Both the position numbers and the translations under genes were made by a program. A stretch of 12,001 bases of DNA, taken from the IMG/VR virus record IMGVR_UViG_2711768053_000012, positions 1 through 12,001 of that record; one strand, given 5' to 3'. Each line of letters begins with the position of its first letter. Position 1 is the stretch's first letter. Origin of the DNA: a virus. Its lineage: Duplodnaviria > Heunggongvirae > Uroviricota > Caudoviricetes. The notes below the pieces were generated by a model. That model worked only from the letters and a program-made list of their open reading frames with translations, searched no databases and was not told the DNA's origin. Below, in pieces: positions 1 to 12,001 of the stretch.

Positions 1-256
1 TGTTGGTTCCCATTGTTTCAAGGTCGATCATCAGGTGGTACCACACTCTGCTGGTGGATGTGATAACGTGATGACCGTTCACCGCAATTAAGGAATCTGC
101 CGTCTCGCCAGTTTCATTATCGCTGGCGTGGTCCTGAGCGCTGCCAGCATTCTCCTTGTGTGGATGTTCAGCGCCTTCCATTTCCTCCGGATCATTTTCC
201 TGAACTTCAACCTGATTCTCTTCATCGAATGTTTCCTGGCATGTTGCGTCGCCCAT
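1..256 (-). CDS. Putative phage exonuclease, N-terminal 85 codons only (gene continues past left edge of window)
   Basis: Own translation of the minus strand: ATG at 256..254, open frame to position 2, giving [15 protein letters not shown]...[17 protein letters not shown]. The MIDLETMGT stretch resembles the Exo I motif of DnaQ-like 3'-5' exonucleases. Absent from the ORF track because there is no stop inside the window. The plus-strand ORF 128..397 is its antisense shadow. Confidence 0.4.
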
Positions 257-397
257 CACCGCACCACAATCAGGGCAGTTGCCGCCACCGATCTGACCGC
301 AGGCGGTGCAGACTTTTTTTGTTTTAACCTCATTACAGATTTAAGGGTGAACAAATCCCTGCCATTGCTGGCATATAAAAATGAAACCGGATATTAA

Positions 398-601
398 TTA
401 CGGTGCTGTTTTAAGTCCTGCCGGGATTTCGTTATTGTCCATGCGAATAACTTTATCAACCGGATAACAGTTGCCGGGAATTTTCTGTTCCGCTGCGGCA
501 GCCATGCATTCTTTCATTGAGTCATGTATACCAATAACAAGATCGACTGGTTCGCCAGTATTAAGAAAAACTGTCAGAACGAGTGCAAATGCTGTATTCA
601 T
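398..601 (-). CDS. Hypothetical small protein (67 aa) with hydrophobic N-terminus
   Basis: Internal Met of track ORF 398..655 chosen as start because of an AAGGA Shine-Dalgarno about 9 nt upstream on the minus strand. Product MNTAFALVLTVFLNTGEP... has a signal-peptide-like or membrane N-terminus. Its start lies 3 nt after the stop of the upstream gene 604..786. The longer start at 655 cannot be excluded. Confidence 0.4.
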   Translation of the reverse strand: MNTAFALVLTVFLNTGEPVDLVIGIHDSMKECMAAAAEQKIPGNCYPVDKVIRMDNNEIPAGLKTAP

Positions 602-603
602 TG

Positions 604-786
604 TCAGCGTCCTTTTTGCATCAGGCGTAAACGGGCCAGCATTGAAACAATGCATATTTGATTTAATAGCTCCCGTTCGTGTTTTCTCTTATTAATGGCA
701 TCTTCAGTAAATACAGGGTTACTGATTCTGACACCAATTTCAAAACAACCTTCAGACGTATTGACGTTTGGTAATAACGTTTCCAT
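604..786 (-). CDS. Hypothetical small early-left protein (60 aa)
   Basis: Track ORF with GAGGA Shine-Dalgarno 7 nt upstream of the ATG at 786 (minus strand); tightly packed with the next gene. No recognisable motif. Confidence 0.45.
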   Translation of the reverse strand: METLLPNVNTSEGCFEIGVRISNPVFTEDAINKRKHERELLNQICIVSMLARLRLMQKGR

Positions 787-803
787 TATCGCGTCCTCAA
801 CAA

Positions 804-967
804 TGAATTTTGTGATGCGGTGCCTGGTGCCTCCAGGTGACGTTAACCAGTTAACAATTAACGCCGGAATACAGGGAAACCAACTCCATAAAACAAATAC
901 GGAGTACCGATCACTTTTTTAACTGTTCCGCGTGCGCTGAGCCGCATTCACCGCATCACAAAATTCA
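804..967. repeat. Perfect 19-bp inverted repeat (TGAATTTTGTGATGCGGTG at 804-822, CACCGCATCACAAAATTCA at 949-967) flanking a 126-bp spacer
   Basis: Read directly from the sequence. Lies in a roughly 560-bp stretch (787-1345) with no convincing ORF on either strand. The spacer contains further palindromic elements (GTTAACCAGTTAAC, CCTGGTGCCTCCAGG). Confidence 0.8.
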
Positions 968-1354
968 CTTTAAAAAGGGCGGACATCAGCCAGCAATGAA
1001 ACTGATGCCGCCAAAAGGTAATCAACATGGGTTGTTGCAGCGGGGTTGTCACTCAGGCGTATGGTCAACCTGACAACCCGGTGTCCTCAACAGGGGGAAG
1101 GAATAACCCCGCCATACGTACCGCCGCGCCATTTCGCGGAGTGCCACAACCGGAAGCGCACGGTCGAATTAAATTTAACGACACCGTACAGTGAGACGAA
1201 CTTCGCCGTGCGCTTTCGCGTTATGCCCTGACTTTTCAGGGATATATCCTTTCAGTAAACTGTCAGTGCCGGATGCTCACCCGTGTCCGGCGCACGCACT
1301 CCACCTGACCCGCGGAGAACTCCTTAATTACCAACCCTCAGGAGGGTGAAATTT

Positions 1355-1546
1355 ATGACACAAGAAGAAAAAATAATGTTTCTTATGCGCCTGGCTGTGG
1401 AAACCTTTAACGCCCATTGCCAGGTGTCCATTTCACCATCTCACGCCATTTCTCTTGCTACCGAGCAAATGGGGGAGATTGACGTCATTTACGATAAATT
1501 TGAGGCATTCCTGGATAAGAAGCTTATGGCAGAGAAGCGTCAATAA
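1355..1546 (+). CDS. Hypothetical small protein (63 aa), plus-strand gene inside a leftward operon
   Basis: ATG at 1355 preceded by a consensus AGGAGG 9 nt upstream; the track start at 1346 is a GTG in the same frame. Product MTQEEKIMFLMRLAVETFNAHCQ... Its 3' end overlaps the 3' end of the convergent minus-strand gene 1524..2129 by 23 nt. Confidence 0.45.
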   Translation: MTQEEKIMFLMRLAVETFNAHCQVSISPSHAISLATEQMGEIDVIYDKFEAFLDKKLMAEKRQ

Positions 1547-2129
1547 TTCTCATTACCCATCGTAAATATACCGGAGTGGGCTTGACGTTGTGTTTTTCAA
1601 GCTCGCTCTTCATTACTTCCTGCAACTTTGAGCTGATAATAAACAAATCAGGTTTATCGTTATTATTTTTATCAGCATCGTCTTTTTTTGTTTTCGACTC
1701 TTGTGGTGAATGCTCGAAAGTAACTTGCAGGGTATTATTTTTAGCGTCCGCAGAGCCTAAAGTATGTGCATATGGATGTGCTATTGTGCGCCCCTGTAAA
1801 TTTGCATCGTTTTCTAAATCTTTTGATTTCAACAGAACATCAGCAAGACTCTGAATCATGCAGAGATAATCAAAAGCAGTTGCCGTTTCTGTTCTGATTG
1901 ATGAAAGAACATGGCCATTCACGCAAACAGAAATTACCCGTTCATTAACATCGCTTTCCTGCTTTTGATTATCAGAACCATATAACCCAGAAAAAGCATT
2001 GCGCACATTACGAACCATATTATCGATGGTTTCTTTTTTAGCGGATGCCGGGTCAATTTCCACCAGGCTATCACTGAGTGTCGTTGCAGCAATTGTCTGG
2101 ATTTCTTTTGGTAAATCTTTAAATTCCAT
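1524..2129 (-). CDS. Hypothetical protein (201 aa), AT-rich, hydrophilic
   Basis: Track ORF with GAGG Shine-Dalgarno 8 nt upstream of the ATG at 2129; follows the upstream gene (stop at 2152) after a 22-nt gap. Lys/Asp/Asn-rich; no recognised domain. Appears AT-richer than neighbours by eye. Confidence 0.6.
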   Translation of the reverse strand: MEFKDLPKEIQTIAATTLSDSLVEIDPASAKKETIDNMVRNVRNAFSGLYGSDNQKQESDVNERVISVCVNGHVLSSIRTETATAFDYLCMIQSLADVLLKSKDLENDANLQGRTIAHPYAHTLGSADAKNNTLQVTFEHSPQESKTKKDDADKNNNDKPDLFIISSKLQEVMKSELEKHNVKPTPVYLRWVMRIIDASLP

Positions 2130-2151
2130 TATTAGCCTCGTTGGTTAGCTA

Positions 2152-2370
2152 TTAACGCGGGTATGTAATCATTCTGGCAACGCTTAATGCCGCTGCCTTT
2201 GTCAGACTGGCGATATCCTGCTCCAGAGCGGACAGATTTTCAGCCTGCTTAGCCCTGGCTTCATTGGCCCATTTCAGATCCTGCGCTGCATTAATTTTCT
2301 GGCGCATCCACTCATAAAGTTCATCATCGGTATAGTCTGGCGCGATGATGACGGGTTCTCGTTTCTGCAT
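2152..2370 (-). CDS. Hypothetical small phage protein (72 aa)
   Basis: Track ORF; same orientation and tight spacing with flanking leftward genes. Product MQKREPVIIAPDYTDDELYEWMRQKINAAQ... Confidence 0.55.
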   Translation of the reverse strand: MQKREPVIIAPDYTDDELYEWMRQKINAAQDLKWANEARAKQAENLSALEQDIASLTKAAALSVARMITYPR

Positions 2371-2400
2371 ACTGAATTCCTCGCGGTGCTGTTTCGCTTA

Positions 2401-2529
2401 TCAGCCGTTAGATTTTGCCGAACTGGAAAGCGCCTGTTCAAATTCGCTGAAGCTGAGGACTTCTTCGCCTTCGGCAAGGCCTTCGAAGTATTCTTCGTAA
2501 GCCTTTTCCATGATTGTGTCGAAATCCAT
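2401..2529 (-). CDS. ydaG: YdaG-like small protein (42 aa)
   Basis: Below the size cutoff of the ORF track; found by my own reverse-complement translation: MDFDTIMEKAYEEYFEGLAEGEEVLSFSEFEQALSSSAKSNG. ATG at 2529, TGA at 2403-2401. Matches my recollection of E. coli Rac prophage YdaG. Start lies 2 nt after the ydaF-like stop. Confidence 0.6.
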   Translation of the reverse strand: MDFDTIMEKAYEEYFEGLAEGEEVLSFSEFEQALSSSAKSNG

Positions 2530-2530
2530 A

Positions 2531-2686
2531 TCACTCACCTGAGTTTCTTTCCAGCCAGCGACGGGCACCATTTTCGGTTTTAAACGTTTTGCTTATGGTA
2601 TACGTCATCGCGGTGAATGTGCCGTCCTGGTTGGGAAACACGCCGTATACCAGAGATTCGTTGTTGCCAAGATCGATAGTATCCAT
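2531..2686 (-). CDS. ydaF: YdaF-like small protein (51 aa, DUF1391-like)
   Basis: Internal Met of track ORF 2531..2764 with GAGG Shine-Dalgarno 5 nt upstream. Product MDTIDLGNNESLVYGVFPNQDGTFTAMTYTISKTFKTENGARRWLERNSGE matches my recollection of Rac prophage YdaF. The 77-aa extended form is less likely. Confidence 0.6.
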   Translation of the reverse strand: MDTIDLGNNESLVYGVFPNQDGTFTAMTYTISKTFKTENGARRWLERNSGE

Positions 2687-2864
2687 GCTGACCTCATTTC
2701 CCCTTAACGCCGGGGTAGCGGAACAAAAACCTGCTGCATAGTTAAAGTTGAACCCTGCCGTCATGTTCTTACGCCTCGGGCTGGCTACTTAACCCCTGAC
2801 CACTGCCTGGTAACTCGAAGTATTGCCCTGCATTCTGTGGGGCGGGGTGGGTTGGTATGCAATA

Positions 2865-2893
2865 AATCTAAAAGTATTTAGTTTTATAGTCAA
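2865..2893 (-). promoter_or_regulatory. pL-like leftward promoter with overlapping operator palindrome
   Basis: On the minus strand: -35 TTGACT (plus 2888-2893), 17-nt spacer, -10 TAGATT (plus 2865-2870). Overlaps the imperfect palindrome AATCTAA-AAGTAT-TTAGTTT at 2865-2884, which has the same 7-6-7 architecture as sites next to the cro-like gene. Confidence 0.45.
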
Positions 2894-2910
2894 GGAAAAT
2901 CTAAATTAAT

Positions 2911-2938
2911 TTAAAAAAAGGTCGGCATAACCGACCTT
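2911..2938 (-). terminator. Rho-independent terminator downstream of the repressor gene
   Basis: Minus-strand hairpin AAGGTCGG-ttatg-CCGACCTT followed by a 7-T run, immediately after the repressor stop at 2960. Confidence 0.6.
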
Positions 2939-2959
2939 AAGTTCAAGAACATGGCAGGG

Positions 2960-3607
2960 TTATAGGTTGAACTGTACACCTTTTGCTACGGCAACAATTT
3001 TACACTCTGGCGTAAGCAAGGATGATTGATAGCGCGGATTGAGAGGGCTTAAATACACAAGTTTTCCATCAATAACTAATTTTTTTATAGTCATAGACGG
3101 TTCATTTGTAAGAGGATCTGGAACTATTACAGCGACGATACTGCCATTTTTATAACTTTCTCCTGGTCTTAGGATCACAGTGGCACCAACTGGGATACTT
3201 GGCGACCCTGAGGGGTTATGCATAGTGTCATCAGGCATTGAAACGGCAAAATCACCTTCCACTACATCAAAGAATGTGGTGATCCTATCGACATTTCCCA
3301 TTGTTTTCTCTCCTTCTAAGATTAGGAAAGAAATCGCGTCACCCCACGAAAAGTAGGGGATCTTGGTGCCTGGATTGCTCTGCACAAAAGATAGTTCAGG
3401 AGACGATACTCCATACAGGAGATAGGACTCAGTAGTTCCTAATGCTTGGGCTAACTTACTTAGAGCTTTGCTGCCGGGTTCGTTTAGATCTTTCTCCCAG
3501 TACCCTATAGTAACCCCAGTCACGCCTGAAAGCTTACCCAGTTCTACTTGGGTGAGTCCCTTATCTTTTCTGAGTTTCTTAAGCCTGATGCCAAGGCTTT
3601 CCATCAT
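2960..3607 (-). CDS. CI-like prophage repressor (N-terminal HTH_XRE, C-terminal S24 LexA-type self-cleaving peptidase)
   Basis: 215 aa. N-terminal HTH (LTQVELGKLSGVTGVTIGYWE). C-terminal S24 signatures: Ser in AVSMPD and Lys in IKKLVIDGKLVYLSPLNPRYQ, the latter closely resembling lambda CI [27 protein letters not shown] Shine-Dalgarno upstream of the ATG at 3607. Divergent from the cro-like gene. Confidence 0.9.
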   Translation of the reverse strand: MMESLGIRLKKLRKDKGLTQVELGKLSGVTGVTIGYWEKDLNEPGSKALSKLAQALGTTESYLLYGVSSPELSFVQSNPGTKIPYFSWGDAISFLILEGEKTMGNVDRITTFFDVVEGDFAVSMPDDTMHNPSGSPSIPVGATVILRPGESYKNGSIVAVIVPDPLTNEPSMTIKKLVIDGKLVYLSPLNPRYQSSLLTPECKIVAVAKGVQFNL

Positions 3608-3623
3608 TTTCTCCCGCGAGTTG

Positions 3624-3690
3624 AATATAAATTATTTTAGATTGCATTGACCTAAAAAAAATTATCCTGTAATCTAAAAATACTTAGATT
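3624..3690. promoter_or_regulatory. Immunity-region operator/promoter (OR/pR-like): two 7-6-7 palindromic operators and a rightward promoter
   Basis: Perfect palindrome AATCTAA-AAATAC-TTAGATT at 3671-3690 and near-perfect AATATAA-ATTATT-TTAGATT at 3624-3643. Candidate pR: -35 TTGACC 3647-3652, 17-nt spacer, weak -10 TAATCT 3670-3675 overlapping the operator. Sits between the divergent repressor and cro-like genes. Confidence 0.5.
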
Positions 3691-3703
3691 TTAGGAGAGT
3701 GAA

Positions 3704-3931
3704 ATGCGAGTTGATGAACTTGTTCAGTTTTTTGGCTCTGTTCAGAGGGTCGCTGATTTTTATGGGATAACCCGCGAAGCTATTTACATGTGGCGTAAGC
3801 GCCCCGGTGAAATAGTTCCGAAAGGGAGAGCTGCGGAAGCTGCTGCATACTCCAAGGGAAAATTATCTTTGAACCCAGAGCTTTACAAAAAGAAGGATAC
3901 CACTCAGAGCGAAAGGAAGAGTGATTCATGA
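3704..3931 (+). CDS. Cro-like HTH regulator (75 aa)
   Basis: GGAGAG Shine-Dalgarno 6 nt upstream. The motif ELVQFFGSVQRVADFYGITREAIYMWRKRPGEIVP parallels P22 Cro (VIDHFGTQRAVAKALGISDAAVSQWKEVIPE, from memory). First gene rightward of the repressor. Confidence 0.8.
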   Translation: MRVDELVQFFGSVQRVADFYGITREAIYMWRKRPGEIVPKGRAAEAAAYSKGKLSLNPELYKKKDTTQSERKSDS

Positions 3932-4353
3932 AAATCAAGCATGAGCACATCCGCATGGCGATGAATGCCTGGGCGCATCCGGATGGTGAAAAAGTTCCGG
4001 CAGCTGAAATAACCCGGGCTTATTTTGAGCTGGGTATGACGTTCCCGGAACTGTATGACGACAGCCATCCGGAAGCCCTGGCTCGCAATACTCAGAAAAT
4101 TTTCCGCTGGGTGGAGAAAGACACCCCTGATGCGGTTAAAAAAATTCAGGCGTTGTTACCAGCGATCGAAAAAGCAATGCCACCTCTGCTGGTGGCCCGA
4201 ATGCGCAGCCACAGTTCAGCCTATTTTCGGGAGCTGGTGGAGACGCGGGAACGACTGGTGAGAGATGCTGATGATTTTGTCGCAGTGGCGATCGCTGGTT
4301 TCAATCAGATGAATCGTGGTGGTCCGGCGGGAAATGCCCTGGTGATGCACTAA
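3928..4353 (+). CDS. ydaT: YdaT-like protein (CII functional analogue family), 141 aa
   Basis: Start overlaps the cro-like stop (ATGA). N-terminus MKIKHEHI and C-terminal ...VMH match my recollection of Rac/CP-933P YdaT; it occupies the cII position after cro. AGGAAGAG Shine-Dalgarno upstream. Confidence 0.6.
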   Translation: MKIKHEHIRMAMNAWAHPDGEKVPAAEITRAYFELGMTFPELYDDSHPEALARNTQKIFRWVEKDTPDAVKKIQALLPAIEKAMPPLLVARMRSHSSAYFRELVETRERLVRDADDFVAVAIAGFNQMNRGGPAGNALVMH

Positions 4354-4376
4354 AAGCACGGTGTTCGGAGTTTTTT

Positions 4377-5324
4377 ATGAGCAGCAAGCTTCATGGTCTT
4401 GTCTGGGAAGGGTGCGCCTTCACCGGCATGATCTTATCCAGGGTGGCAGTAATGGCTCGCCTTGCAGATTACAGCAATGACGAAGGTGTGTCATGGCCTG
4501 CAGTGGAGACCATTCGTCGTCAGATTGGGGCAAAGAGTGAATCAACGGTTAAAGCTGCGATAGCGGAACTGGAAAAGAACGGCTGGCTGACGAAGGAGGA
4601 ACGTAAGGTCGGTGGGCGTAATGTAAGCAATATCTACCGCCTTAATGTGGAAAAACTCGAAGCAGCAGCAGCGGCGGCGCGTGAGGCATATAAACCGAAA
4701 AGAAAAATTAGCCAGGCAAAAAATGACCCGTCAAATATTGCCCCCTCAACGGTTGACCCCTCAAATTTTGATGGATCAACCATTGATAAAAAACAGTCGG
4801 ATAGGGGGGCGATGGTTGGCCCCGATCCGTCAGTATTAAAACCTGATCCGTCAGATAAAAGATCTTTTCGTCCGGACGCTTCGCAACCGGACCCGCAGAC
4901 GGCTGAACAGGATTTTTTAACCCGACACCCTGACGCGGTTGTGTTCAGTGCGAAAAAACGCCAGTGGGGCAGCCAGGAAGATTTGGCGTGTGCGCAGTGG
5001 ATCTGGGGACGAATCGTGAGTCTTTACGAGCAGGCTGCCAGCGATGATGGCGAAATCATGCGACCGAAAGAACCCAACTGGACTGCATGGGCCAATGATG
5101 TGCGCACAATGCGGATGCTGGATGGCAGAACTCACAGACAAATTTGCGAAATGTTTGGTCGGGTACAGCGGGATCCATTCTGGGTAAAAAACGTCATGAG
5201 CCCGTCAAAGCTTCGCGAAAAATGGGATGAGCTGGTTATTCGTCTGGGGCGTTCGCCTGTACAGCGTTGCGTGAATCACATTTCTGAACCGGATACCGAA
5301 ATTCCGCCGGGCTTCAGGGGGTAA
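4377..5324 (+). CDS. Phage replication initiation protein (N-terminal HTH DNA-binding domain, low-complexity linker, C-terminal domain; lambda O-like organisation)
   Basis: 315 aa. N-terminal region LSRVAVMARLADYSNDEGVSWPAVETIRRQIGAKSESTVKAAIAELEKNGWL is typical of phage replication-initiator HTH domains. The linker DPSNIAPSTVDPSNFDGS...PDPSVLKPDPSDK is encoded by iteron-like DNA repeats. Sits after the cro/cII-like genes. Confidence 0.7.
   Translation: MSSKLHGLVWEGCAFTGMILSRVAVMARLADYSNDEGVSWPAVETIRRQIGAKSESTVKAAIAELEKNGWLTKEERKVGGRNVSNIYRLNVEKLEAAAAAAREAYKPKRKISQAKNDPSNIAPSTVDPSNFDGSTIDKKQSDRGAMVGPDPSVLKPDPSDKRSFRPDASQPDPQTAEQDFLTRHPDAVVFSAKKRQWGSQEDLACAQWIWGRIVSLYEQAASDDGEIMRPKEPNWTAWANDVRTMRMLDGRTHRQICEMFGRVQRDPFWVKNVMSPSKLREKWDELVIRLGRSPVQRCVNHISEPDTEIPPGFRG
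4725..4905 (+). repeat. Iteron-like direct repeats (candidate replication origin) inside the replication initiator gene
   Basis: GACCCGTCAAATATTG (4725-4740), GACCCCTCAAATTTTG (4755-4770), GATCCGTCAGTATTAAA (4824-4840), GATCCGTCAGATAAAA (4845-4860), plus degenerate copies near 4741-4750 and 4890-4899. Consensus GAYCCNTCA followed by an A/T-rich tail. Confidence 0.55.
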
Positions 5325-5366
5325 GTGTTGATTTGAGGTTATGAAGTTATTTTCTCAGGAGAGTTT

Positions 5367-5768
5367 ATGGGGACTATTTATACCGAAGAACAGCGGGAAA
5401 GATTACAGCGTCATATCGTTGACCTTGTGCGTAAAAACGGGCGTATGACAATGCCACAACTGGCATCGGCAACATATGCTTCACATGATTCCATTCGCCG
5501 GTACCTGAAGATGCTGGTGAGCGAGGGCGAAGTGTATGTTGTCAGCGGAAAAGGGGTATTCCTTTCAGAGAGGGTTTACCGTGAATGGCTGGCAAGTTCG
5601 GCAAGAAAAGCAAGGGTTATCCGCAAACCAGCACAAAAACAGGGTAAGGCAGGAGCACAACCCTATGACCGGCACCAGAACATAATTTGCCGTGAGTGCC
5701 GGAAGAGTGAAGTTATGCAGCGTGTACTGGCGTTCTATCAGGGAGATTTTCAGGAGGTGATGGAGTGA
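5367..5768 (+). CDS. Hypothetical phage protein with probable winged-helix DNA-binding N-terminus (133 aa)
   Basis: AGGAGA Shine-Dalgarno 5 nt upstream of ATG. The segment NGRMTMPQLASATYASHDSIRRYLKMLVSEGEV is wHTH-like; basic C-terminal tail. No helicase-loader features. Confidence 0.6.
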   Translation: MGTIYTEEQRERLQRHIVDLVRKNGRMTMPQLASATYASHDSIRRYLKMLVSEGEVYVVSGKGVFLSERVYREWLASSARKARVIRKPAQKQGKAGAQPYDRHQNIICRECRKSEVMQRVLAFYQGDFQEVME

Positions 5769-6070
5769 GGGTGAGGGTTTATATCGCCGGTCCGATGACC
5801 GGGTATAAAAATTTCAACCGTGAGGCGTTCCACAAGGCGGAAGAGGAACTGAAACGGGAAGGGCATACAGTCTTAAACCCAGCAGTACTTCCGGACGGAC
5901 TGACGCAGCCACACTATATGGATATTTGCATGGCAATGATTCGTTGTGTGGATGCGATTTACATGCTGAAAGGCTGGCAGCGGTCAGCAGGTGCTAAGGC
6001 AGAACTGGCACTGGCGGAGAAGCTGGGGCATGCAGTTATTTTTCAGGAGGCAACCAGTGAGCAACATTAA
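5765..6070 (+). CDS. DUF4406-like protein (nucleoside 2-deoxyribosyltransferase-like fold), 101 aa
   Basis: GTG start at 5765 overlapping the upstream stop, AGGAGG 7 nt upstream. N-terminal VYIAGPMTGYKNFNREAFHKAEEELKREGHTVLNP matches my recollection of the DUF4406 signature (YIAGPMTG...NP). Confidence 0.65.
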   Translation: MRVRVYIAGPMTGYKNFNREAFHKAEEELKREGHTVLNPAVLPDGLTQPHYMDICMAMIRCVDAIYMLKGWQRSAGAKAELALAEKLGHAVIFQEATSEQH

Positions 6071-6611
6071 TTACCAGGCACTGCGAATGGCGGCAGAAAA
6101 TGCAACCCCTGGCGAATGGTGTTCTGATGATTATGGGGTAATTGCCGATGCCGGACTGAACGCAAATTACTACATAGCATCATGCTCAGGACCAGATAAT
6201 CGCGCCAATAAGCGATTCATAGCGGCAGCCAATCCGGCTACCGTGCTGGCAGTGCTTGATGAACGGGGAGCCCAAAGCAAACGCATTGCAGAGCTGGAAG
6301 CTAATCTTGTGGCGCTGGCGGCGGAGAATGCAGGGCTGAATAAATTTATCGCACAGAGTTGCTACGTGTTTGATGGCGAGCAGGATGAAATATCTGATGC
6401 GTATATCTGCGCAAGAGACGGAGGTATGCCGCAAACCACGGCTACAGATGCTCTCCTGGCTGATGTACGGGCGGTGGCGTTTGACGAACTTCGCGCGGCG
6501 TTTGTCAGGCACGCAAAAGTTGCAGGACTGGATGATGCCGATACCGTAACGCTTAAGGAAGTGACAGAAGCATTGTTGCATTGTGCGGAACAGATTCGCT
6601 CGCCTGAATAA
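6057..6611 (+). CDS. Ead/Ea22-like phage protein
   Basis: The track ORF starts at 5991 inside the previous gene. I prefer the in-frame GTG at 6057 (AGGAGG 6045-6050, 6 nt upstream); an ATG at about 6090 is an alternative. The N-terminal motif INYQALRMAAENATPGEW resembles the conserved start of Ead/Ea22-like proteins as I recall them. Confidence 0.6.
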   Translation: MSNINYQALRMAAENATPGEWCSDDYGVIADAGLNANYYIASCSGPDNRANKRFIAAANPATVLAVLDERGAQSKRIAELEANLVALAAENAGLNKFIAQSCYVFDGEQDEISDAYICARDGGMPQTTATDALLADVRAVAFDELRAAFVRHAKVAGLDDADTVTLKEVTEALLHCAEQIRSPE

Positions 6612-6705
6612 TTAAATTTAGTGTTGCAAATAAAATTTAATCCTTAACCGGAGGGATTCCTACACCCTCAGAACATCAGGAGGCCGCCCGAAAGGGCGGT
6701 AATGA

Positions 6706-6924
6706 ATGGTCACATTATTCAGAAAAAAATATCCACGAAAGAGTAGAACAACAGAATTCCTGTTTCTCATTCTGTTTATCGTGTTAATGATACCGATATC
6801 CCCGCTAATTTTTGTCTGGGCAATCGGGAAAATAATTGAGCCAGTTATTGAATTGTATAACGACGTGGTATGGGCGTCGTTCAACACACTGCACAATAAA
6901 ATTAATCCGTATAAGGAGAACTGA
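6706..6924 (+). CDS. Hypothetical small membrane protein (72 aa; basic N-terminus plus one transmembrane helix)
   Basis: Track ORF. Product MVTLFRKKYPRKSRTTEFLFLILFIVLMIPISPLIFVWAIGK... Stop at 6922-6924, 1 nt before the next gene's ATG. Region is AT-rich by eye. An AGGAGG at 6678-6683 is separated from the ATG by a GNRA-loop hairpin. Confidence 0.5.
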   Translation: MVTLFRKKYPRKSRTTEFLFLILFIVLMIPISPLIFVWAIGKIIEPVIELYNDVVWASFNTLHNKINPYKEN

Positions 6925-6925
6925 T

Positions 6926-7444
6926 ATGACCACTATTACCAGAGAAAACGCGGAGATTAAATCATTCATCACTGGTTTCCTGAGCGACCCGGCGCACGAT
7001 ATCCAATCTTCAGACAGCCTGCTTGCCAATGTGTTTCGTATCGCACTGGCGTCACTGGAAGCAGAGCCAGTGGCGTGGAAGGCAACCTTCACGCAAATTG
7101 ACAATGAATATAATACGTTCACTGCTCTGTATTCTGACAAAGCAGAAGTCGAACGGTGGGTGCGACTGCATGAAATAGGTGACTTTCGGGCAGAAATAAC
7201 ACCGCTTTACGCAGCGCCGTCAGCGCCGGTAGCTCCAGATGGTTGGATAAGCTGTAGTGAGCGAATGCCAAAAGATGGTCAGCACGTAATTATTTTATGT
7301 GATGGCGCATTCGTTCTTTATGCGCAATATCGGGACGGTGAGTTTTTTGATGTCGTCCGCAATGGTGAGGAATTCTTCGAAACGCAGAGCCGCAATGTAA
7401 CCCACTGGATACTGCTACCGGAGCCGCCGCAGGAGGTGAACTGA
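6926..7444 (+). CDS. Phage protein with C-terminal DUF551-like domain (172 aa)
   Basis: The track ORF starts at 6836 inside the previous gene; ATG at 6926 has an AAGGAGA Shine-Dalgarno 6 nt upstream. C-terminal ...THWILLPEPPQEV matches my recollection of the DUF551 C-terminal motif. Confidence 0.65.
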   Translation: MTTITRENAEIKSFITGFLSDPAHDIQSSDSLLANVFRIALASLEAEPVAWKATFTQIDNEYNTFTALYSDKAEVERWVRLHEIGDFRAEITPLYAAPSAPVAPDGWISCSERMPKDGQHVIILCDGAFVLYAQYRDGEFFDVVRNGEEFFETQSRNVTHWILLPEPPQEVN

Positions 7445-7836
7445 TGAATGAAGGCGACAATGTTATCACCCTGGTGCAGCCAAAATCAGAGGAGGAAGGG
7501 CTCCTTAACGTTGTGATAACCGACAGAAAAAGCGGCGAGCAAAAATACTGTCAGCATATCCGTACAACAATTTCAGAAGTGAAGCGTACGATTACCTGCA
7601 ACCGATGCGGATTGGCTTTAGAACCGTTCGAACTTGTTCTCGACCGTGCGAGAAACGGTGAAAACATCGTGTCAGAGATTAAATCACTCTATGCAAAGCG
7701 GGATGCTCTTCGTGAAGCTGTGGCAAAACTTGAACGTGAAGAGAAAAACGCCAAAGCCCGGTTGCGAGCAGCCAGGACTGCAATACTGTATGCGGAAAAT
7801 GACCTTAAAAATATTGGGCAGGAGGTGAATCGATGA
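7444..7836 (+). CDS. Hypothetical phage protein (130 aa) with Cys pair and C-terminal coiled-coil-like region
   Basis: ATG overlaps the upstream stop (TGATG), AGGAGG 7 nt upstream. CQH...C...CNRC residues and a heptad-like charged C-terminus (AKRDALREAVAKLEREEKNAKARLRAAR). Confidence 0.65.
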   Translation: MNEGDNVITLVQPKSEEEGLLNVVITDRKSGEQKYCQHIRTTISEVKRTITCNRCGLALEPFELVLDRARNGENIVSEIKSLYAKRDALREAVAKLEREEKNAKARLRAARTAILYAENDLKNIGQEVNR

Positions 7837-7916
7837 CCTGGCCTGAGGCATTTACTACGGTAGGAATTGCGATGGCGGTGGCGCTGGTGGTGTATTCGAT
7901 TTGCCGCTGGGGATAA
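7833..7916 (+). CDS. Small hydrophobic peptide (27 aa), translationally coupled
   Basis: Below the ORF-track cutoff; my own translation is MTWPEAFTTVGIAMAVALVVYSICRWG. ATG overlaps the upstream stop (ATGA), with a consensus AGGAGG (7820-7825) 7 nt upstream. Single predicted transmembrane segment. Confidence 0.45.
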   Translation: MTWPEAFTTVGIAMAVALVVYSICRWG

Positions 7917-8127
7917 AAACGGTTTGCGGGAAAAGGAGAGTTAAGTAGAATTGCTGCGGGTGCTTGAGGCTATCTGCCTCAGGCATGAACACCAAAAGGC
8001 AGATAGAGAAAAGCCCCAGTTAACATTACGCGTCCTGCAAGACGCTTAACATTAATCTGAGGCCCAATCTATGTCTCACAAATGTAGGTTAGCCTCTTAC
8101 GTGCCGAAAGGCAAGGAGAAGCAGGCT

Positions 8128-8283
8128 ATGAAGCAGCAAAAGGCGATGTTAATCGCCCTGATCGTCATCTGTTTAACCGTCATAGTGACGGCACTGGTAA
8201 CGAGGAAAGACCTCTGCGAGGTACGAATCCGAACCGGCCAGACGGAGGTCGCTGTCTTCACAGCTTACGAACCTGAGGAGTAA
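8128..8283 (+). CDS. hokD: Hok/Gef family type I toxin (51 aa)
   Basis: Product MKQQKAMLIALIVICLTVIVTALVTRKDLCEVRIRTGQTEVAVFTAYEPEE matches my recollection of E. coli HokD (RelF) and aligns closely with Gef/Hok. AAGGAGA Shine-Dalgarno 8 nt upstream of the ATG at 8128. The track ORF starts at an upstream in-frame ATG (8071) giving 70 aa. The upstream leader is highly structured and a terminator follows. Confidence 0.85.
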   Translation: MKQQKAMLIALIVICLTVIVTALVTRKDLCEVRIRTGQTEVAVFTAYEPEE

Positions 8284-8351
8284 GAGACCAGGCGGGGGAG
8301 AAATCCCTCGCCACCTCTGATGTGTCAGGCATCCTCAACGCACCCGCACTT

Positions 8352-8376
8352 AACCCGCTTCGGCGGGTTTTTTATT
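8352..8376 (+). terminator. Rho-independent terminator after hok
   Basis: Hairpin AACCCGC-ttcg-GCGGGTT followed by TTTTTTATT. The 21 bp TAACCCGCTTCGGCGGGTTTT (8351-8371) recur identically at 10186-10206. Confidence 0.75.
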
Positions 8377-8421
8377 GGTTGACAAAATTATGAATATGCA
8401 CCAATATCTTGGTTGACAAAA
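8375..8421 (+). promoter_or_regulatory. Tandem 13-bp direct repeats TTGGTTGACAAAA (8375-8387 and 8409-8421) containing a consensus -35 TTGACA; candidate promoter/operator of the cassette
   Basis: Read from the sequence; repeats are 34 bp apart. The first TTGACA (8379-8384) with a 17-nt spacer gives a weak -10 CAATAT (8402-8407), placing the second repeat near the predicted transcription start. Confidence 0.45.
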
Positions 8422-8456
8422 GTCGTTTTTTGCACGGATTAGGCGGAGAAGTGTCT

Positions 8457-9050
8457 ATGCAGAAGCATCCATTCCCTTGGGAGTTCTTTCCTGAGTTAAC
8501 AGAGGATCGTTTAACCATTATAGCTGAGGAGTTGCTCAGGATACAGGATATTACTCATGAGTTATTGTCATCGCCCTATGATGATAATTACACTCGTGGT
8601 GGTTGTACATTTGGGCGTCAGCGGCAGGCGTTGCTACAAATGTGCATACGAAAGACATATGACTGGTTAAGACTACTTAATCCTGGCATGGATCTTACGT
8701 TTTCAATTGGGAATGTCCCTATTCGTTTCTTTACTGATGACGCAGATAACCCCAAGAAACGCGGTTTTTTCAAAAGAAATGATGCTGATCGACTCTTTGA
8801 GTCAGAGGAGACCACTCCAACTATGCATCGCTTTGTGGTTGAAAAGCCTGAATTTGAAGGCGAGGGTGGTAGAGTCATTTTTAATGGCTATAACGTGTTT
8901 GGTGAGATCGTGTCAACTTGGACATATGGTGCGGACCGTGTTGTTATGCTGAACTCTGTCGATGATGTACCTCCAGCACCGGTACCTATCGAACTAGAAC
9001 CTATCAGTGCGTCTAAGACTGAGAAGGAAAAGAAACAAAATAGCAAATAG
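8457..9050 (+). CDS. Hypothetical protein, first gene of the cassette (197 aa from ATG 8457; 213 aa if ATG 8409 is used)
   Basis: Track ORF 8409..9050. I prefer the in-frame ATG at 8457 (GGAG about 10 nt upstream) because the 8409 ATG lies inside the direct-repeat/-35 element. No recognisable catalytic motif; acidic Pro-rich C-terminus and Lys-rich tail. AT-richer than the flanks by eye. Confidence 0.6.
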   Translation: MQKHPFPWEFFPELTEDRLTIIAEELLRIQDITHELLSSPYDDNYTRGGCTFGRQRQALLQMCIRKTYDWLRLLNPGMDLTFSIGNVPIRFFTDDADNPKKRGFFKRNDADRLFESEETTPTMHRFVVEKPEFEGEGGRVIFNGYNVFGEIVSTWTYGADRVVMLNSVDDVPPAPVPIELEPISASKTEKEKKQNSK

Positions 9051-9060
9051 TGGGTGAAAT

Positions 9061-10182
9061 GTGTTTAACGGTACTAATTTAAGACTTGCTCGTCTGTATC
9101 ACGAGCTATCTCTGGAGCAGGTTGCTGAGAAGGTTGAAAAAACACGCCAGTATGTACAGCGACTGGAGTCTGGTTCAGCTACTCCATCCCCAGAGCTTAT
9201 AAATAAATTAGCCGAGGTTTTGCGCGTGAAGCCCGCCTTTTTCGAAGGGCAGGAACATTCTCCTGTTAATGAAGAGATTGTACATTTTCGTAAACGCGCC
9301 TCGACAAGGATGTCAACGAAGCTATCAACACTCGCTAAGGCTGAGTTTTATCGTCGTTTTATTGATGTATTTGAAGATAACCTTAATTTGTCACCTGTTC
9401 GATTTCCTGAATTTCGTGTCCATACACAAGAAGATATCGAGCGAGCGGCAGAAAAATGTCGTATTGAGTGGGGCTTAGGCTTTGGCCCAATTGAAAATAT
9501 GACTCGCCTTGCCGAGAAACTTGGGGCGTTTGTTACTTCATTTGACTCCGTTTCGGATGAAGTAGATGCACTGTCTGTTCCTCTACGAAGGCCTTTTATT
9601 GTTCGAAATACAGCTAAAAATTCACCTTGTAGGCAACGCTTTGATATTGCTCATGAGGTTGCCCATTTGATTCTTCATGAAGGAATTTCTACTGGGGATA
9701 GATTAACTGAATCCCAGGCAAACCGCTTTGCCTCTGCTCTGTTGCTTCCCAGAACGTCGATGGCGAAATATTTTCCAAGACCTGTGGGGGGGAGGATAAA
9801 TTGGCAGGGACTAAGCCAATTTAAGTTGACATGGAAAGTAAGTAAGGCTGCCATTGTTTACAGGGCTCATCAATTAGGACTTTTGACTGATGAGCAGTAC
9901 AGAACTGCATTTATGGGGTTGAAACGGAAAGGGGAAGCTATTGATGAAAAAGAAGATTATCTAATCCCTCATGAGCGTCCTGAGTTATTCCGTCGGGCTT
10001 TATCGTTTTTATTTGAAGAGTTAGGATACGACCCACAGCGTATAGCTGATGAAATGGATATAGAAGTGGACATTTTTTATGAGTTAGTAGGAGATGATCT
10101 TCCTGCGGTTCATGAACTGCCAGGAAGTGGTGATGTTGTTTCACTACAATCTTACCGAACTCTTAGAGGCAAAATTCACTAG
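9061..10182 (+). CDS. Fused HTH_XRE DNA-binding domain plus ImmA/IrrE-family (DUF955/COG2856-type) HExxH zinc metallopeptidase, 373 aa
   Basis: GTG start at 9061, first start after an in-frame stop and 10 nt after the upstream gene's stop. N-terminal HTH (LSLEQVAEKVEKTRQYVQRLESGSATPSPELINKLAEVLRV); HEVAH (HExxH) at about 9652-9666 inside FDIAHEVAHLILHE, typical of ImmA/IrrE peptidases; about 120-aa C-terminal extension. A terminator follows immediately. Confidence 0.8.
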   Translation: MFNGTNLRLARLYHELSLEQVAEKVEKTRQYVQRLESGSATPSPELINKLAEVLRVKPAFFEGQEHSPVNEEIVHFRKRASTRMSTKLSTLAKAEFYRRFIDVFEDNLNLSPVRFPEFRVHTQEDIERAAEKCRIEWGLGFGPIENMTRLAEKLGAFVTSFDSVSDEVDALSVPLRRPFIVRNTAKNSPCRQRFDIAHEVAHLILHEGISTGDRLTESQANRFASALLLPRTSMAKYFPRPVGGRINWQGLSQFKLTWKVSKAAIVYRAHQLGLLTDEQYRTAFMGLKRKGEAIDEKEDYLIPHERPELFRRALSFLFEELGYDPQRIADEMDIEVDIFYELVGDDLPAVHELPGSGDVVSLQSYRTLRGKIH

Positions 10183-10186
10183 GCAT

Positions 10187-10214
10187 AACCCGCTTCGGCG
10201 GGTTTTGTTTTTTC
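10187..10214 (+). terminator. Rho-independent terminator after the cassette (sequence-identical to the hok terminator)
   Basis: Hairpin AACCCGC-ttcg-GCGGGTT followed by TTGTTTTTTCT, beginning 5 nt after the stop at 10182. Confidence 0.75.
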
Positions 10215-10285
10215 TGAGCATCCTGGTTTACAATTCGCACGTCAGCCTGAACACCTGACACCTGCTGCGCCAGCAGAGAAAACCG

Positions 10286-10558
10286 ATGGCGCACAATACC
10301 AAACATCACAATTCTGATACCGACCTTGCCAGCAGGCACGGGCGGCGTTCTCATACATTCAAATATGACTGGTTCCAGCATGATCCATGCACTGAAGAAC
10401 AGGCCGAATGGCTGATTCAGTGTTACCGCAGGCGCGGATGCGAGGTTAAAAAAGCCCTTAGCCTCGACTACCGACATTGGATAATTTCAGTCAGGCTCCC
10501 TTATTCCGAACGCCCGCCGCGTCCGTCCCGCACATTACAGCAACGGATCTGGAGGTAA
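10286..10558 (+). CDS. Hypothetical protein (90 aa), rem-like by position
   Basis: Track ORF ending 1 nt before the YdfU-like start; weak Shine-Dalgarno. Sits directly upstream of the DUF968 gene, as rem does relative to ydfU in E. coli K-12 Qin (recollection of gene order only, no sequence recognition). Confidence 0.4.
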   Translation: MAHNTKHHNSDTDLASRHGRRSHTFKYDWFQHDPCTEEQAEWLIQCYRRRGCEVKKALSLDYRHWIISVRLPYSERPPRPSRTLQQRIWR

Positions 10559-10559
10559 C

Positions 10560-11609
10560 ATGCGGGTATTGCTTCGACCTGTTCTGGTACCGGAACTCGG
10601 GCTGGTGGTCCTTAAGCCTGGTCGTGAATCCATGCAGGTATTTCATAATCCTCGAGTGCTGGTGGAGCCGGAACCGAAAAGCATGCGCAGTCTGCCGTCA
10701 GGAGCTGTTCCTGCCGTTCGCCAGCCGCTCGTGGAAGATAAATCATTACTGCCATTTTTCAGCGATGAGCGGGCGATTCGTGCTGCTGGCGGCGCTGGCG
10801 CATTGTCTGACTGGCTCCTGCGTCATGTTAAATCCTGCCAGTGGCCTCATGGTGACTATCACCACAGCGAAACCGTCATACATCGTTACGGTACCGGCGC
10901 AATGGTGTTGTGCTGGCACTGTGACAACCAGCTGCGCGACCAGACATCAGAATCACTCGGGCAACTTGCTCAACAAAACTTGTCAGCATGGATGATTGAC
11001 GTCATCCGTCACGCAATGAATGGCACACAGGAGCGGGAATTATCGCTAGCTGAATTATCCTGGTGGGCGGTCTGCAATCGGGTAGCGGACGCGCTACCGG
11101 AGGCAGTATTACGTCGTTCTCTGGGGTTACGTGCGGAAAAAATCCGTTCGGCGTACCGCGAAAGTGACATCGTACCGGGAGAGCAGACAGCCACCAGCAT
11201 ACTGAAGCAGCGCACAAAAAATATTGTGCTACCGCCTCACGCCCACCAGCAACAGAACCCACCACAGGAAAAGACGGTGGTCAGCATTGCCGTTGATCCG
11301 GAGTCTCCTGAATCTTTCATGAAACGACCTAAACGTCGCCGTTGGGTTAATAAGAAATACACGCGCTGGGTAAAGACACAGCCGTGTGCGTGTTGTGGTA
11401 AGCCAGCCGACGATCCCCATCACCTGATTGGTCACGGTCAGGGAGGGATGGGAACAAAGGCCCACGATATTTTCACGCTACCGTTGTGCCGGGAACATCA
11501 CAACGAACTTCATGCGGATCTGCTGGCGTTCGAAGAAAAGCATGGTTCTCAGGTTGATTTAATTTTTCGTTTTCTTGATCACGCCTTTGCAACCGGCGTG
11601 CTCGGGTAA
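10560..11609 (+). CDS. DUF968-like protein, YdfU-like (349 aa) with C-terminal Cys/His-rich region
   Basis: GGAGG Shine-Dalgarno 4 nt upstream of ATG. C-terminal CACCGKPADDPHHLIGHG...CREHHNELH looks like a zinc-binding/HNH-like motif. Length and position (after a hok toxin, before nin-region genes) match my recollection of Qin YdfU. Confidence 0.65.
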   Translation: MRVLLRPVLVPELGLVVLKPGRESMQVFHNPRVLVEPEPKSMRSLPSGAVPAVRQPLVEDKSLLPFFSDERAIRAAGGAGALSDWLLRHVKSCQWPHGDYHHSETVIHRYGTGAMVLCWHCDNQLRDQTSESLGQLAQQNLSAWMIDVIRHAMNGTQERELSLAELSWWAVCNRVADALPEAVLRRSLGLRAEKIRSAYRESDIVPGEQTATSILKQRTKNIVLPPHAHQQQNPPQEKTVVSIAVDPESPESFMKRPKRRRWVNKKYTRWVKTQPCACCGKPADDPHHLIGHGQGGMGTKAHDIFTLPLCREHHNELHADLLAFEEKHGSQVDLIFRFLDHAFATGVLG

Positions 11610-11621
11610 AAGAGGTTACTG

Positions 11622-11996
11622 ATGCGTATAGAGTTTGTTTTGCCTTACCCACCGACGGTGAACACCTACTGGCGACGTCGTGGCAGCACATATTTTGTAT
11701 CAAAAGCCGGTGAGCGTTATCGCCGGGATGTGGCACTTATTGTTCGCCAGCAGCGACTGAAATTAAACCTGTCCGGAAGGCTAGCGATAAAGATTATTGC
11801 AGAGCCACCGGATAAGCGCCGCCGCGACCTGGACAATATCCTGAAGGCACCACTGGATGCGCTGACGCATGCCGGACTACTTATAGACGACGAGCAGTTT
11901 GATGAAATCAATATTGTGCGCGGTCAGCTCGTTCCTGGTGGACGTCTGGGGGTGAAGATTTACCCCATAATGCATGAAGAGCAGGTCAAAAAATGA
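11622..11996 (+). CDS. rusA: RusA-family Holliday junction resolvase
   Basis: 124 aa. PPDKRRRDLDNILKAPLDALTHAGLLIDDEQ matches the RusA catalytic region (E. coli RusA [30 protein letters not shown], from memory). AGAGG Shine-Dalgarno upstream. An ATG overlapping its stop (11993) probably starts the next nin-region gene. Confidence 0.85.
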   Translation: MRIEFVLPYPPTVNTYWRRRGSTYFVSKAGERYRRDVALIVRQQRLKLNLSGRLAIKIIAEPPDKRRRDLDNILKAPLDALTHAGLLIDDEQFDEINIVRGQLVPGGRLGVKIYPIMHEEQVKK

Positions 11997-12001
11997 AGCT
12001 G

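Follow-up and report, generated by a model that had tools for sequence, protein, structure and literature searches.

Probable left operators and early-left promoter in a Qin/Rac-like lambdoid prophage of a previously uncharacterised immunity type

The window analysed here is a stretch of 12,001 nt from a virus of the Caudoviricetes (IMG/VR record IMGVR_UViG_2711768053_000012, positions 1 to 12,001), and comes from an E. coli prophage of the lambdoid, Qin/Rac-like kind, of which it represents the early region. Positions 2865-2917, which lie between the gene for a 215 amino acid (aa) repressor and a leftward operon beginning with ydfA, very probably carry the left operators (OL1 and OL2) and the early-left promoter (pL) of an immunity specificity that was previously uncharacterised. 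The promoter itself is conventional, being of the ordinary genetic-switch kind in an undescribed immunity type. Four lines of comparison, independent of one another and all drawn from sequence, support the interpretation. The elements concerned are the following.

2865..2884, no strand assigned: OL1, the main left operator, minus-strand sequence AAACTAA-ATACTT-TTAGATT, one mismatch to the perfect palindrome of the right operator (OR) region
2898..2917, no strand assigned: OL2, a weaker upstream operator, minus-strand sequence TTTTTAA-ATTAAT-TTAGATT, three mismatches
2893..2888, minus strand: -35 hexamer TTGACT of the leftward early promoter (pL, or dicBp analogue), from the promoter scan
2870..2865, minus strand: -10 hexamer TAGATT, after a 17-nt spacer and inside the proximal half-site of OL1, from the promoter scan
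2856..2860, minus strand: predicted transcription start, G2860 to A2858, inferred at 5-8 nt past the -10
2911..2938, minus strand: intrinsic terminator of the repressor transcript, a nine-pair stem and T run just past the stop codon

Along the minus strand the order is repressor, terminator, promoter (2893..2865), ydfA, ydfB, ydfC and dicB, so that the promoter follows the repressor gene in the direction of its transcription and reads into the early-left genes. TTGACT-17-TAGATT is the only minus-strand sigma-70-like site returned by a promoter scan of bases 2400-4000, and no further promoter-like site was detected by the scan between the terminator and the leader described below. The original prediction had placed a 7-6-7 site at 2865-2884, and both its sequence and its coordinates are exact (plus-strand pieces 2865-2871 AATCTAA, 2872-2877 AAGTAT and 2878-2884 TTAGTTT); the site matches those of the OR region. 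It had also been said to overlap this minus-strand promoter, which the scan recovered and the conservation of the -35 and half-sites in 37 relatives bears out, and to lie downstream of the repressor terminator, where a hairpin (2938..2918) and T run do follow the repressor stop codon. OL1 covers the promoter spacer and the -10 hexamer, and operator and core promoter therefore overlap. Relative to a +1 near 2858, OL1 extends from about -26 to -7, the -35 hexamer from -35 to -30, and OL2 from about -59 to -40.

The palindrome AATCTAA-N6-TTAGATT, allowing at most one mismatch, occurs three times in the window (at 2865, 3624 and 3671), compared with 0.00 occurrences in 200 dinucleotide shuffles and an analytical expectation of 0.003. 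The best four matches in the 12 kb (0, 1, 1 and 3 mismatches) all fall in the intergenic regions flanking the repressor gene, OL2 being the fourth best and 16/18 identical to OR3. The left operator motif thus recurs between the repressor and cro genes, in the OR region, which has the following parts.

3671..3690, no strand assigned: OR1, perfect palindrome AATCTAA-AAATAC-TTAGATT with zero mismatches, overlapping the -10 and start of pR
3650..3669, no strand assigned: putative OR2, a weak site, GACCTAA-AAAAAA-TTATCCT, overlapping the -35 of pR and matching at 9/14 specified bases
3624..3643, no strand assigned: OR3, AATATAA-ATTATT-TTAGATT, beside the repressor start, one mismatch
3648..3675, plus strand: pR, the rightward early promoter, TTGACC-16-TAATCT, read from the sequence

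OR3 also overlaps a possible -10 (TATATT, minus strand) of pRM. The hexamers of pR are identical to those of the Qin promoter dicBp, as seen by comparison with K-12; its -10 agrees with the consensus at 3/6 positions, and pR was not called by the promoter scan. The OR2 match is not significant alone, and counterpart middle sites, 24-25 bp from their neighbours, are present in Arsenophonus and Xenorhabdus. With OR2 included, OR has three parts, spaced by 21 and 26 bp.

Conservation was first assessed among viruses with the same repressor type, using 47 IMG/VR loci with repressors of 93-100% identity; in these loci and the window, the region downstream of the repressor gene exists in 37 distinct versions. 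The TTGAC of the -35 hexamer is invariant in all 37, as is AAAACTAAAT, which contains the distal half-site AAACTAA, and the proximal half-site, which includes the -10, shows changes to TTATATT (a better -10) or TTAGTTT alone. Hypervariable positions are located in the gap between OL2 and the -35 (2895-2897), the gap between the -35 and OL1 (2886-2888) and the operator centre (2872-2874), and positions 2855-2864, downstream of the -10, are highly variable, with indels at 2852-2859. Substitutions in the terminator stem all preserve pairing, as G-U or C-G, when read from per-position counts. Such a pattern is the footprint that would be expected for a promoter overlapped by the operator of a dimeric helix-turn-helix (HTH) protein with an uncontacted centre. 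In P22 and 434 operators the central spacer is not contacted by the protein; here the best-kept bases, CTAA-N6-TTAG, are one helical turn apart, and all the operator spacers are A/T-rich.

More distant relatives, with repressors 45-50% identical, were found in Arsenophonus nasoniae, Ca. Phlomobacter and two Xenorhabdus species. Their repressors keep the recognition helix, GV[TS]GVT[IV]GYWEKDLNEP, and the motif flanks the repressor gene on both sides. On the far side the register is the same as in the window: TTGACT-ata-AAACTAA-atactt-TTAGATT in the window aligns with TTGCAT-tta-AAACTAA-gttaac-TTAGATT in X. hominickii, TTGAAT-tta-AAACTAA-gttatc-TTAGATT in X. santafensis and TTGCAA-tat-AAACTAA-gttatt-TTATATT in Arsenophonus. 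On the cro side there are three sites, 24-25 bp apart, in Xenorhabdus and Arsenophonus, and on the far side two sites, 33-35 bp apart, with OL2 counterparts at three loci (L013, L014 and L015). Since the far-side sites are paired at this distance in the distant relatives, 2898-2917 is best read as a weak second operator and not as a stray half-site. The original prediction had noted a fourth half-site, AATCTAA, at 2898-2904; the half-site is present, but it is not isolated as had been supposed, being the promoter-proximal half of OL2, the distal half of which overlaps the T run of the terminator. No third operator was found at OL.

A separate comparison used heteroimmune relatives. Homology between the window and many other prophages extends over ~2697-2858 and ends at the predicted start site, and with the conserved leader as anchor a sample of 120 IMG/VR loci (L100-L219) was collected. 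When the 90 nt upstream of the anchor were grouped, 30 clusters resulted, which stand for 13 or more unrelated types of promoter and operator, among them those of Rac (TTAGGC palindromes, TTGACA-17-TATAGT) and HK022-like, Evi-like and 640R1-like types. Every type has its own -35 and -10, ending 5-8 nt ahead of the shared sequence "...ACCAACCC...". In an OL-by-OR matrix of seven phages, the best 18-mer match of each OL was its own OR, alone or tied. Within the anchored sample, the motif (at most 2 mismatches) was present in the pL zone of 4/4 loci carrying this repressor compared with 1/109 loci without it (Fisher p = 8e-7), and at the single motif-positive locus without the repressor the motif lies outside the promoter. 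Operators and repressor specificity co-vary, that is, among mosaic relatives, and this co-occurrence, together with the motif shared with OR, favours the earlier proposal of a pL/OL at which one repressor type would control both early operons.

The predicted start region, 2856..2860, is a mosaic joint at which immunity-specific DNA meets the shared leader. From coverage figures, the immunity-specific segment is estimated to run from ~2859 (about the +1 of pL) to ~3935 (about the end of cro), and so fits the classical immunity region of lambdoid phages. So sharp a joint points to a role for the leader as a recombination linker, connecting immunity modules with early-left operons. With at least 13 unrelated operator/promoter cassettes joined to one leader at the same nucleotide (about +1), these prophages form a natural library, and the comparative panel offers natural orthogonal repressor/operator pairs in the form of more than a dozen cassettes fused to a single leader.

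The promoter could nevertheless be real and the likeness of 2865-2884 to OR an incidental product of A+T-rich DNA, the left operon being constitutive or controlled by host proteins (H-NS, Rho). The left spacer is about 71% A+T, TAGATT serves as the -10 in immunity types with unrelated operators (clusters L175, L179 and L215, and the first leader copy of L093), and Rho, H-NS and OxyR are known to silence Rac and Qin genes (see also PMC11879457). We consider this explanation highly improbable, as the 101-nt spacer between repressor and leader, even at its own composition, is expected to hold 2.4e-4 sites with at most one mismatch, the distal half-site AAACTAA is outside any promoter hexamer and yet invariant in the 37 close relatives and present in other genera, and the motif is missing from the pL zones of 108/109 loci without this repressor.

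A different question is which protein binds the palindromes. They might be operators of the Cro-like protein (3704-3931) or of the YdaT/CII-like protein (3928-4353), which would then control the left promoter. The cro-like gene is inside the immunity-specific segment and is homologous in the Xenorhabdus/Arsenophonus relatives, so that it co-varies with the motif too, but in every studied lambdoid switch Cro and repressor act on the same operators, and Cro binding adds to that of the repressor and does not replace it. Conservation of the repressor HTH, moreover, coincides exactly with conservation of the motif. The immunity region of Rac contains 18-bp inverted repeats (ATGATT-N6-AATCAA) to which its YdaT binds (PMC11879457); in the window, however, the ydaT-like gene is outside the immunity-specific segment, heteroimmune homology appearing to resume at ~3940, the 5' end of this gene, despite the different operators, and YdaT is for this reason an unlikely operator ligand. 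Taken as a whole, control by one of these two proteins appears improbable, and by analogy with other switches the Cro-like protein probably shares the operators with the repressor.

Several observations weigh against the interpretation of 2865-2917 as a repressor-controlled pL/OL. Both Cro-like protein and repressor remain candidates for the main OL ligand as far as sequence comparison goes, because both genes co-vary with the motif. The promoter core matches the consensus at 9/12 positions, and the 4 promoter-like sites in the scanned region represent no enrichment over the 2.7 expected from shuffles; the promoter match alone is therefore not significant, and the case for function rests on comparison and conservation. 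OL2 (3 mismatches) and OR2 (5 mismatches) are weak candidates, put forward from positional conservation alone. Operator sequences of this immunity type were not found in the literature searched. Neither Ala-Gly nor Cys-Gly occurs as a dipeptide in the 215 aa of the repressor, which so lacks a recognisable scissile bond, and it has Thr in place of the catalytic Ser149 where the GNSM of lambda aligns with DDTM, leaving the Ser/Lys pair incomplete. The element may also be a non-inducible cryptic prophage in many of its hosts.

The repressor has HTH_3 and Peptidase_S24-like domains (the S24 domain was matched by Pfam at 41 bits), and no other phage repressor in the phage collection exceeds 36% identity to it. 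Among solved proteins, the HTH domain is nearest to P22 C2 (E = 3e-7) and the C-terminal domain to lambda cI. The DicA family score was 44.9 bits, against a cutoff of 101, the HTH alone being similar. When the linker was aligned by hand with the lambda and P22 sequences, Ala-Ile was found at the cleavage position, with Ala-Ile or Ala-Leu in the relatives, and the Lys of lambda TFKKL is kept, as TIKKL. The repressor is thus probably not self-cleaving in the presence of RecA, judging from these residues, and the missing canonical cleavage site points to induction by an antirepressor, or by some other non-SOS route, as in Qin; by analogy with DicA/Rem, an antirepressor may be involved. The original prediction likened the switch to that of lambda, which holds for the operator logic but, with no Ala-Gly and with Thr for Ser, probably not for induction.

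In a lysogen, dimers of the repressor would bind OL1, filling the spacer and -10 of TTGACT-17-TAGATT, and a second dimer would occupy the weaker OL2, probably cooperatively. OL1 and OL2 are 33 bp apart, or about three helical turns, and are therefore on the same face of the DNA, where cooperative binding is possible. OL2 abuts the -35 hexamer and the terminator T run, and a dimer there could block upstream contacts. RNA polymerase would be excluded in this way, and the leftward transcript starting near 2858 silenced. The same repressor, and probably the Cro-like protein too, would bind OR1-OR3 (3624-3690), with both early operons shut as a result, in the manner of lambda OL/OR and of dicCp/dicBp in Qin. 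Once repression is lost, transcription would cross the structured leader, enter ydfA-ydfB-ydfC...dicB and continue in the direction of recE, xis and int. The switch as reconstructed gates an operon for the DicB cell division inhibitor, and so bears on filamentation caused by prophages and on superinfection immunity. An operator code, AAWCTAA-N6-TTAGWTT, and a switch layout are hereby defined for an immunity group that has no description in the literature searched.

OL could instead act mainly as a distal anchor for looping to OR, the centres of which are 806 bp apart, and so tune repressor autoregulation in the manner of lambda OL for pRM. Two OL and three OR operators, counting the weak candidates OL2 and OR2, match the octamer and looping layout of lambda, an argument by analogy alone. 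Against it, OL1 sits between the -35 and -10, the position of maximal steric repression, and is kept there across genera; looping and direct repression are, besides, compatible with each other. As the main role of OL, looping is extremely unlikely, and direct repression of pL by the bound repressor remains the preferred reading.

The closest known system by gene order is Qin, in which dicBp, between dicA and ydfA, is repressed ~22-fold by DicA and forms part of a bistable DicA/DicC switch (PMC10448788). Qin and the window share the order cro-like gene, OR, repressor, promoter and ydfA-ydfB-ydfC...dicB, and in Qin, too, the operator of dicBp (TTGACC, 17 nt including TGTTAGTCATGGC, TAATCT) is found between the repressor and cro-like genes as well. 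The leftward operon had been predicted to be ydaF/ydaG-like, a description that fits loosely because YdaF and YdfA are paralogues, but it is actually the Qin-type operon, and the promoter is therefore the positional counterpart of dicBp. The window promoter belongs with the dicBp class in its position upstream of a ydfA-ydfB-ydfC-(dicF)-dicB operon, and departs from it in that control by a DicA operator does not apply: the operators are TTAG-N6-CTAA in Qin and CTAA-N6-TTAG in the window, and DicA is 135 aa whereas the window repressor is 215 aa and has an S24-like C-terminal domain. K-12 Qin also lacks most of the leader, homology beginning only ~40 nt before ydfA. Finally, an Rfam scan detected no DicF small RNA in 787-1523, between ydfC/orf201 and dicB, while dicF is present in the equivalent interval of K-12 Qin and phage Tritos.

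With lambda, the window shares predicted repressor operators common to two divergent early promoters that flank the repressor gene, a terminator after the repressor transcript, what may be multiple adjacent operators, and a left operon leading to kil, recombination, xis and int functions. The differences are that lambda operators are 17 bp and those of the window 20-bp 7-6-7 sites, that lambda has three OL sites and the window two recognisable ones (33 bp apart), that N and nutL are missing from the window, where another conserved leader takes their place, and that the window repressor has no Ala-Gly cleavage site. P22 C2 is the closest solved HTH, and both systems have palindromic operators with an A/T-rich central spacer; however, the proteins are 32% identical, the helix is GVTGVTIGYWE in the window and GVSNVAISQWE in C2, and the operators differ in sequence and length.

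In Rac, lowered expression or silencing of racR derepresses ydaG, ydaF and kilR (PMC6765115; bioRxiv 10.64898/2026.09.06.749655), by about 40-fold for ydaF and ydaG and >70-fold for kilR (PMC6765115). A homologous leader is present in the racR-ydaG spacer, and TTGACA-17-TATAGT, bracketed by RacR-type palindromes, occurs at the identical position. RacR differs in being 158 aa and of an unrelated family with a TTAGGC-type operator, and the first genes are ydaG-ydaF, not ydfA-ydfB. At HK022 pL, cryo-EM work shows a structured put RNA within a few nt of +1 (PMC9378689), and the start is 6 nt past the -10. The 666R9/Tritos-type promoter found at the position of pL closely resembles HK022 pL, with HK022-like operators upstream of the leader. 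HK022 and the window have in common a structured RNA directly after the promoter and a prophage with no N-like gene, but putL consists of two roughly 35-nt stem-loops, and the window leader of one long and one small hairpin.

The sequence shared downstream of these promoters includes a leader with the following position.

2761..2856, minus strand: conserved structured 5' leader of about 100 nt, recognised by covariation and shared by at least 13 promoter types

The whole 5' untranslated region covers ~2687-2858. Its leader consists of a four-segment hairpin (2848..2792) with an apical CAAUACUUCGAGUUA, a small hairpin (2785..2773) and an invariant Shine-Dalgarno (SD) sequence and AUG (2764..2762), and is common to at least 13 heteroimmune early-left promoter types of Rac/Qin-like prophages, that of K-12 Rac (racR-ydaG spacer) included. 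Four divergent lineages of Enterobacterales (A, E. coli including K-12 Rac; B, L307; C, Arsenophonus-like; D, L169) share this four-segment hairpin and its conserved apical sequence, CAAUACYYCGAGUUA. On the 3' side of the hairpin is an invariant AAGUAGCCAGCCYGAGGCRUAHGAACAUGA, which holds the SD sequence and AUG of a short open reading frame (ORF) whose peptide is not conserved. This upstream AUG, with the SD sequence GAGG at 9 nt, is fused in frame to ydfA in the window, giving a 77-aa ORF, and elsewhere opens an upstream ORF of 18 codons (Rac) or 7 codons (Arsenophonus-type leaders).

A covariance model was built from lineage A and 33 leader instances were realigned to it. Pairing was seen in 89.5% of cells, compared with 73.3% in shuffles (0/500 shuffles as high), compensatory changes in 13/20 pairs, and the covariation score of 0.352 exceeded both the value for shuffles (0.126) and that for slid partners (0.11 at most); these figures carry the caveat that the alignment was fitted to the structure of the model. 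Shuffled sequences fold at least as stably as the 181-nt leader (z = +1.25), and it was through covariation across lineages that the leader was recognised, fold stability alone being insufficient. RNAalifold on a plain MAFFT alignment recovered the apical pairs alone, since the position of the lower stems shifts from one lineage to another, and realignment with the covariance model was needed. A variable-gap scan for divergent leaders returned 75/92 distinct matched segments by chance, which were removed by requiring the SD context. The structure contains G-U pairs and is strand-specific, and so provides independent evidence for minus-strand transcription here.

Rfam searches of the whole window at the gathering threshold, and of 2600-2960 at E<=10, returned sok and chance-level hits alone, with the leader unmatched, and no description of the leader sequences was found in the literature searched. 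Like put RNA, the leader is directly after pL and has a covarying structure. As an identity for it, HK022 putL was rejected, since it has no sequence similarity and another architecture, and there is no second copy (a putR analogue) of the leader in the window. The anti-sRNAs (antagonists of small RNAs) AgvB and AsxR were considered for the C/A-rich 5' end of the leader and set aside, as they are encoded at the pR' moron site instead. We tentatively propose, as a possibility falling somewhat short of probable, that the leader is a new cis-acting regulatory RNA of lambdoid phages without N, either a put-like factor-independent antiterminator or an attenuator coupled to Rho and translation. Such an attenuator could prevent leaky transcription from expressing the toxic genes kil and dicB. 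As a third candidate role, the leader may control translation of the first gene.

Arsenophonus-type contigs were found with two same-strand copies of the leader, 1.7-2.7 kb apart (L093/L013, at 417-516 and 2253-2352; L257; L273; L284). The one upstream region read, that of L093 copy 1, has its own promoter, TTGACA-17-TAGATT, and a different palindrome. These contigs look like tandem or rearranged immunity modules.

The genes on either side of the switch are listed below.

2960..3607, minus strand: repressor gene, 215 aa, HTH_3 and Peptidase_S24-like, from Pfam matches
3704..3931, plus strand: cro-like gene, P22_Cro family, DicC-like, from profile matches
3928..4353, plus strand: YdaT (CII-analogue) gene
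2531..2686, minus strand: ydfA (DUF1391), the first annotated gene of the leftward operon
2401..2529, minus strand: ydfB, from the RefSeq annotation of a 98% identical locus
2152..2370, minus strand: ydfC, from the annotation of the 98% identical locus
604..786, minus strand: dicB, a cell division inhibitor gene of the same leftward operon (NCBIfam CellDivInhibDicB, 126.5 bits, cutoff 100)

A 201-aa ORF of unknown function at 1524-2129 (minus strand), which takes up part of the interval between ydfC and dicB, has no match in Pfam or NCBIfam. At the 98% identical locus of ATCC 43886, genes for an exonuclease, xis and int come next in the leftward operon; the counterpart of the promoter there is near 2874713-2874799 of NZ_CP024256.1. 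In GenBank phage records (L002, 5132-5368, and the equivalents in L007 and L008), the DUF1391 gene ydfA/ydaF is labelled 'head-DNA stabilization protein D', which looks like an annotation error, given the position in an early-left operon and the DUF1391 match.

Bases 2400-4000 were covered to at least 80%, at 97-98% identity, in 474 of 5426 complete E. coli genomes (about 9%), and also in two induced phages, vB_EcoS-689R5 and vB_EcoM-606R7. A megablast search with an 86-nt OL query found at least 78 genomes, a number limited by word size and giving no estimate of prevalence. A 1797-nt contig (L011, JAIHTM010000357.1) recorded as 'MAG: Collinsella sp.' encodes a 100% identical repressor, with matching operators on both sides of the gene, and is most likely E. 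coli prophage DNA mis-binned as Collinsella. Elsewhere in the window, a sok antisense RNA was detected at 7958-8133 (plus strand; Rfam RF01794, 121.7 bits), and marks a hok/sok-type (hokD-like) toxin-antitoxin locus on the rightward side of the prophage.

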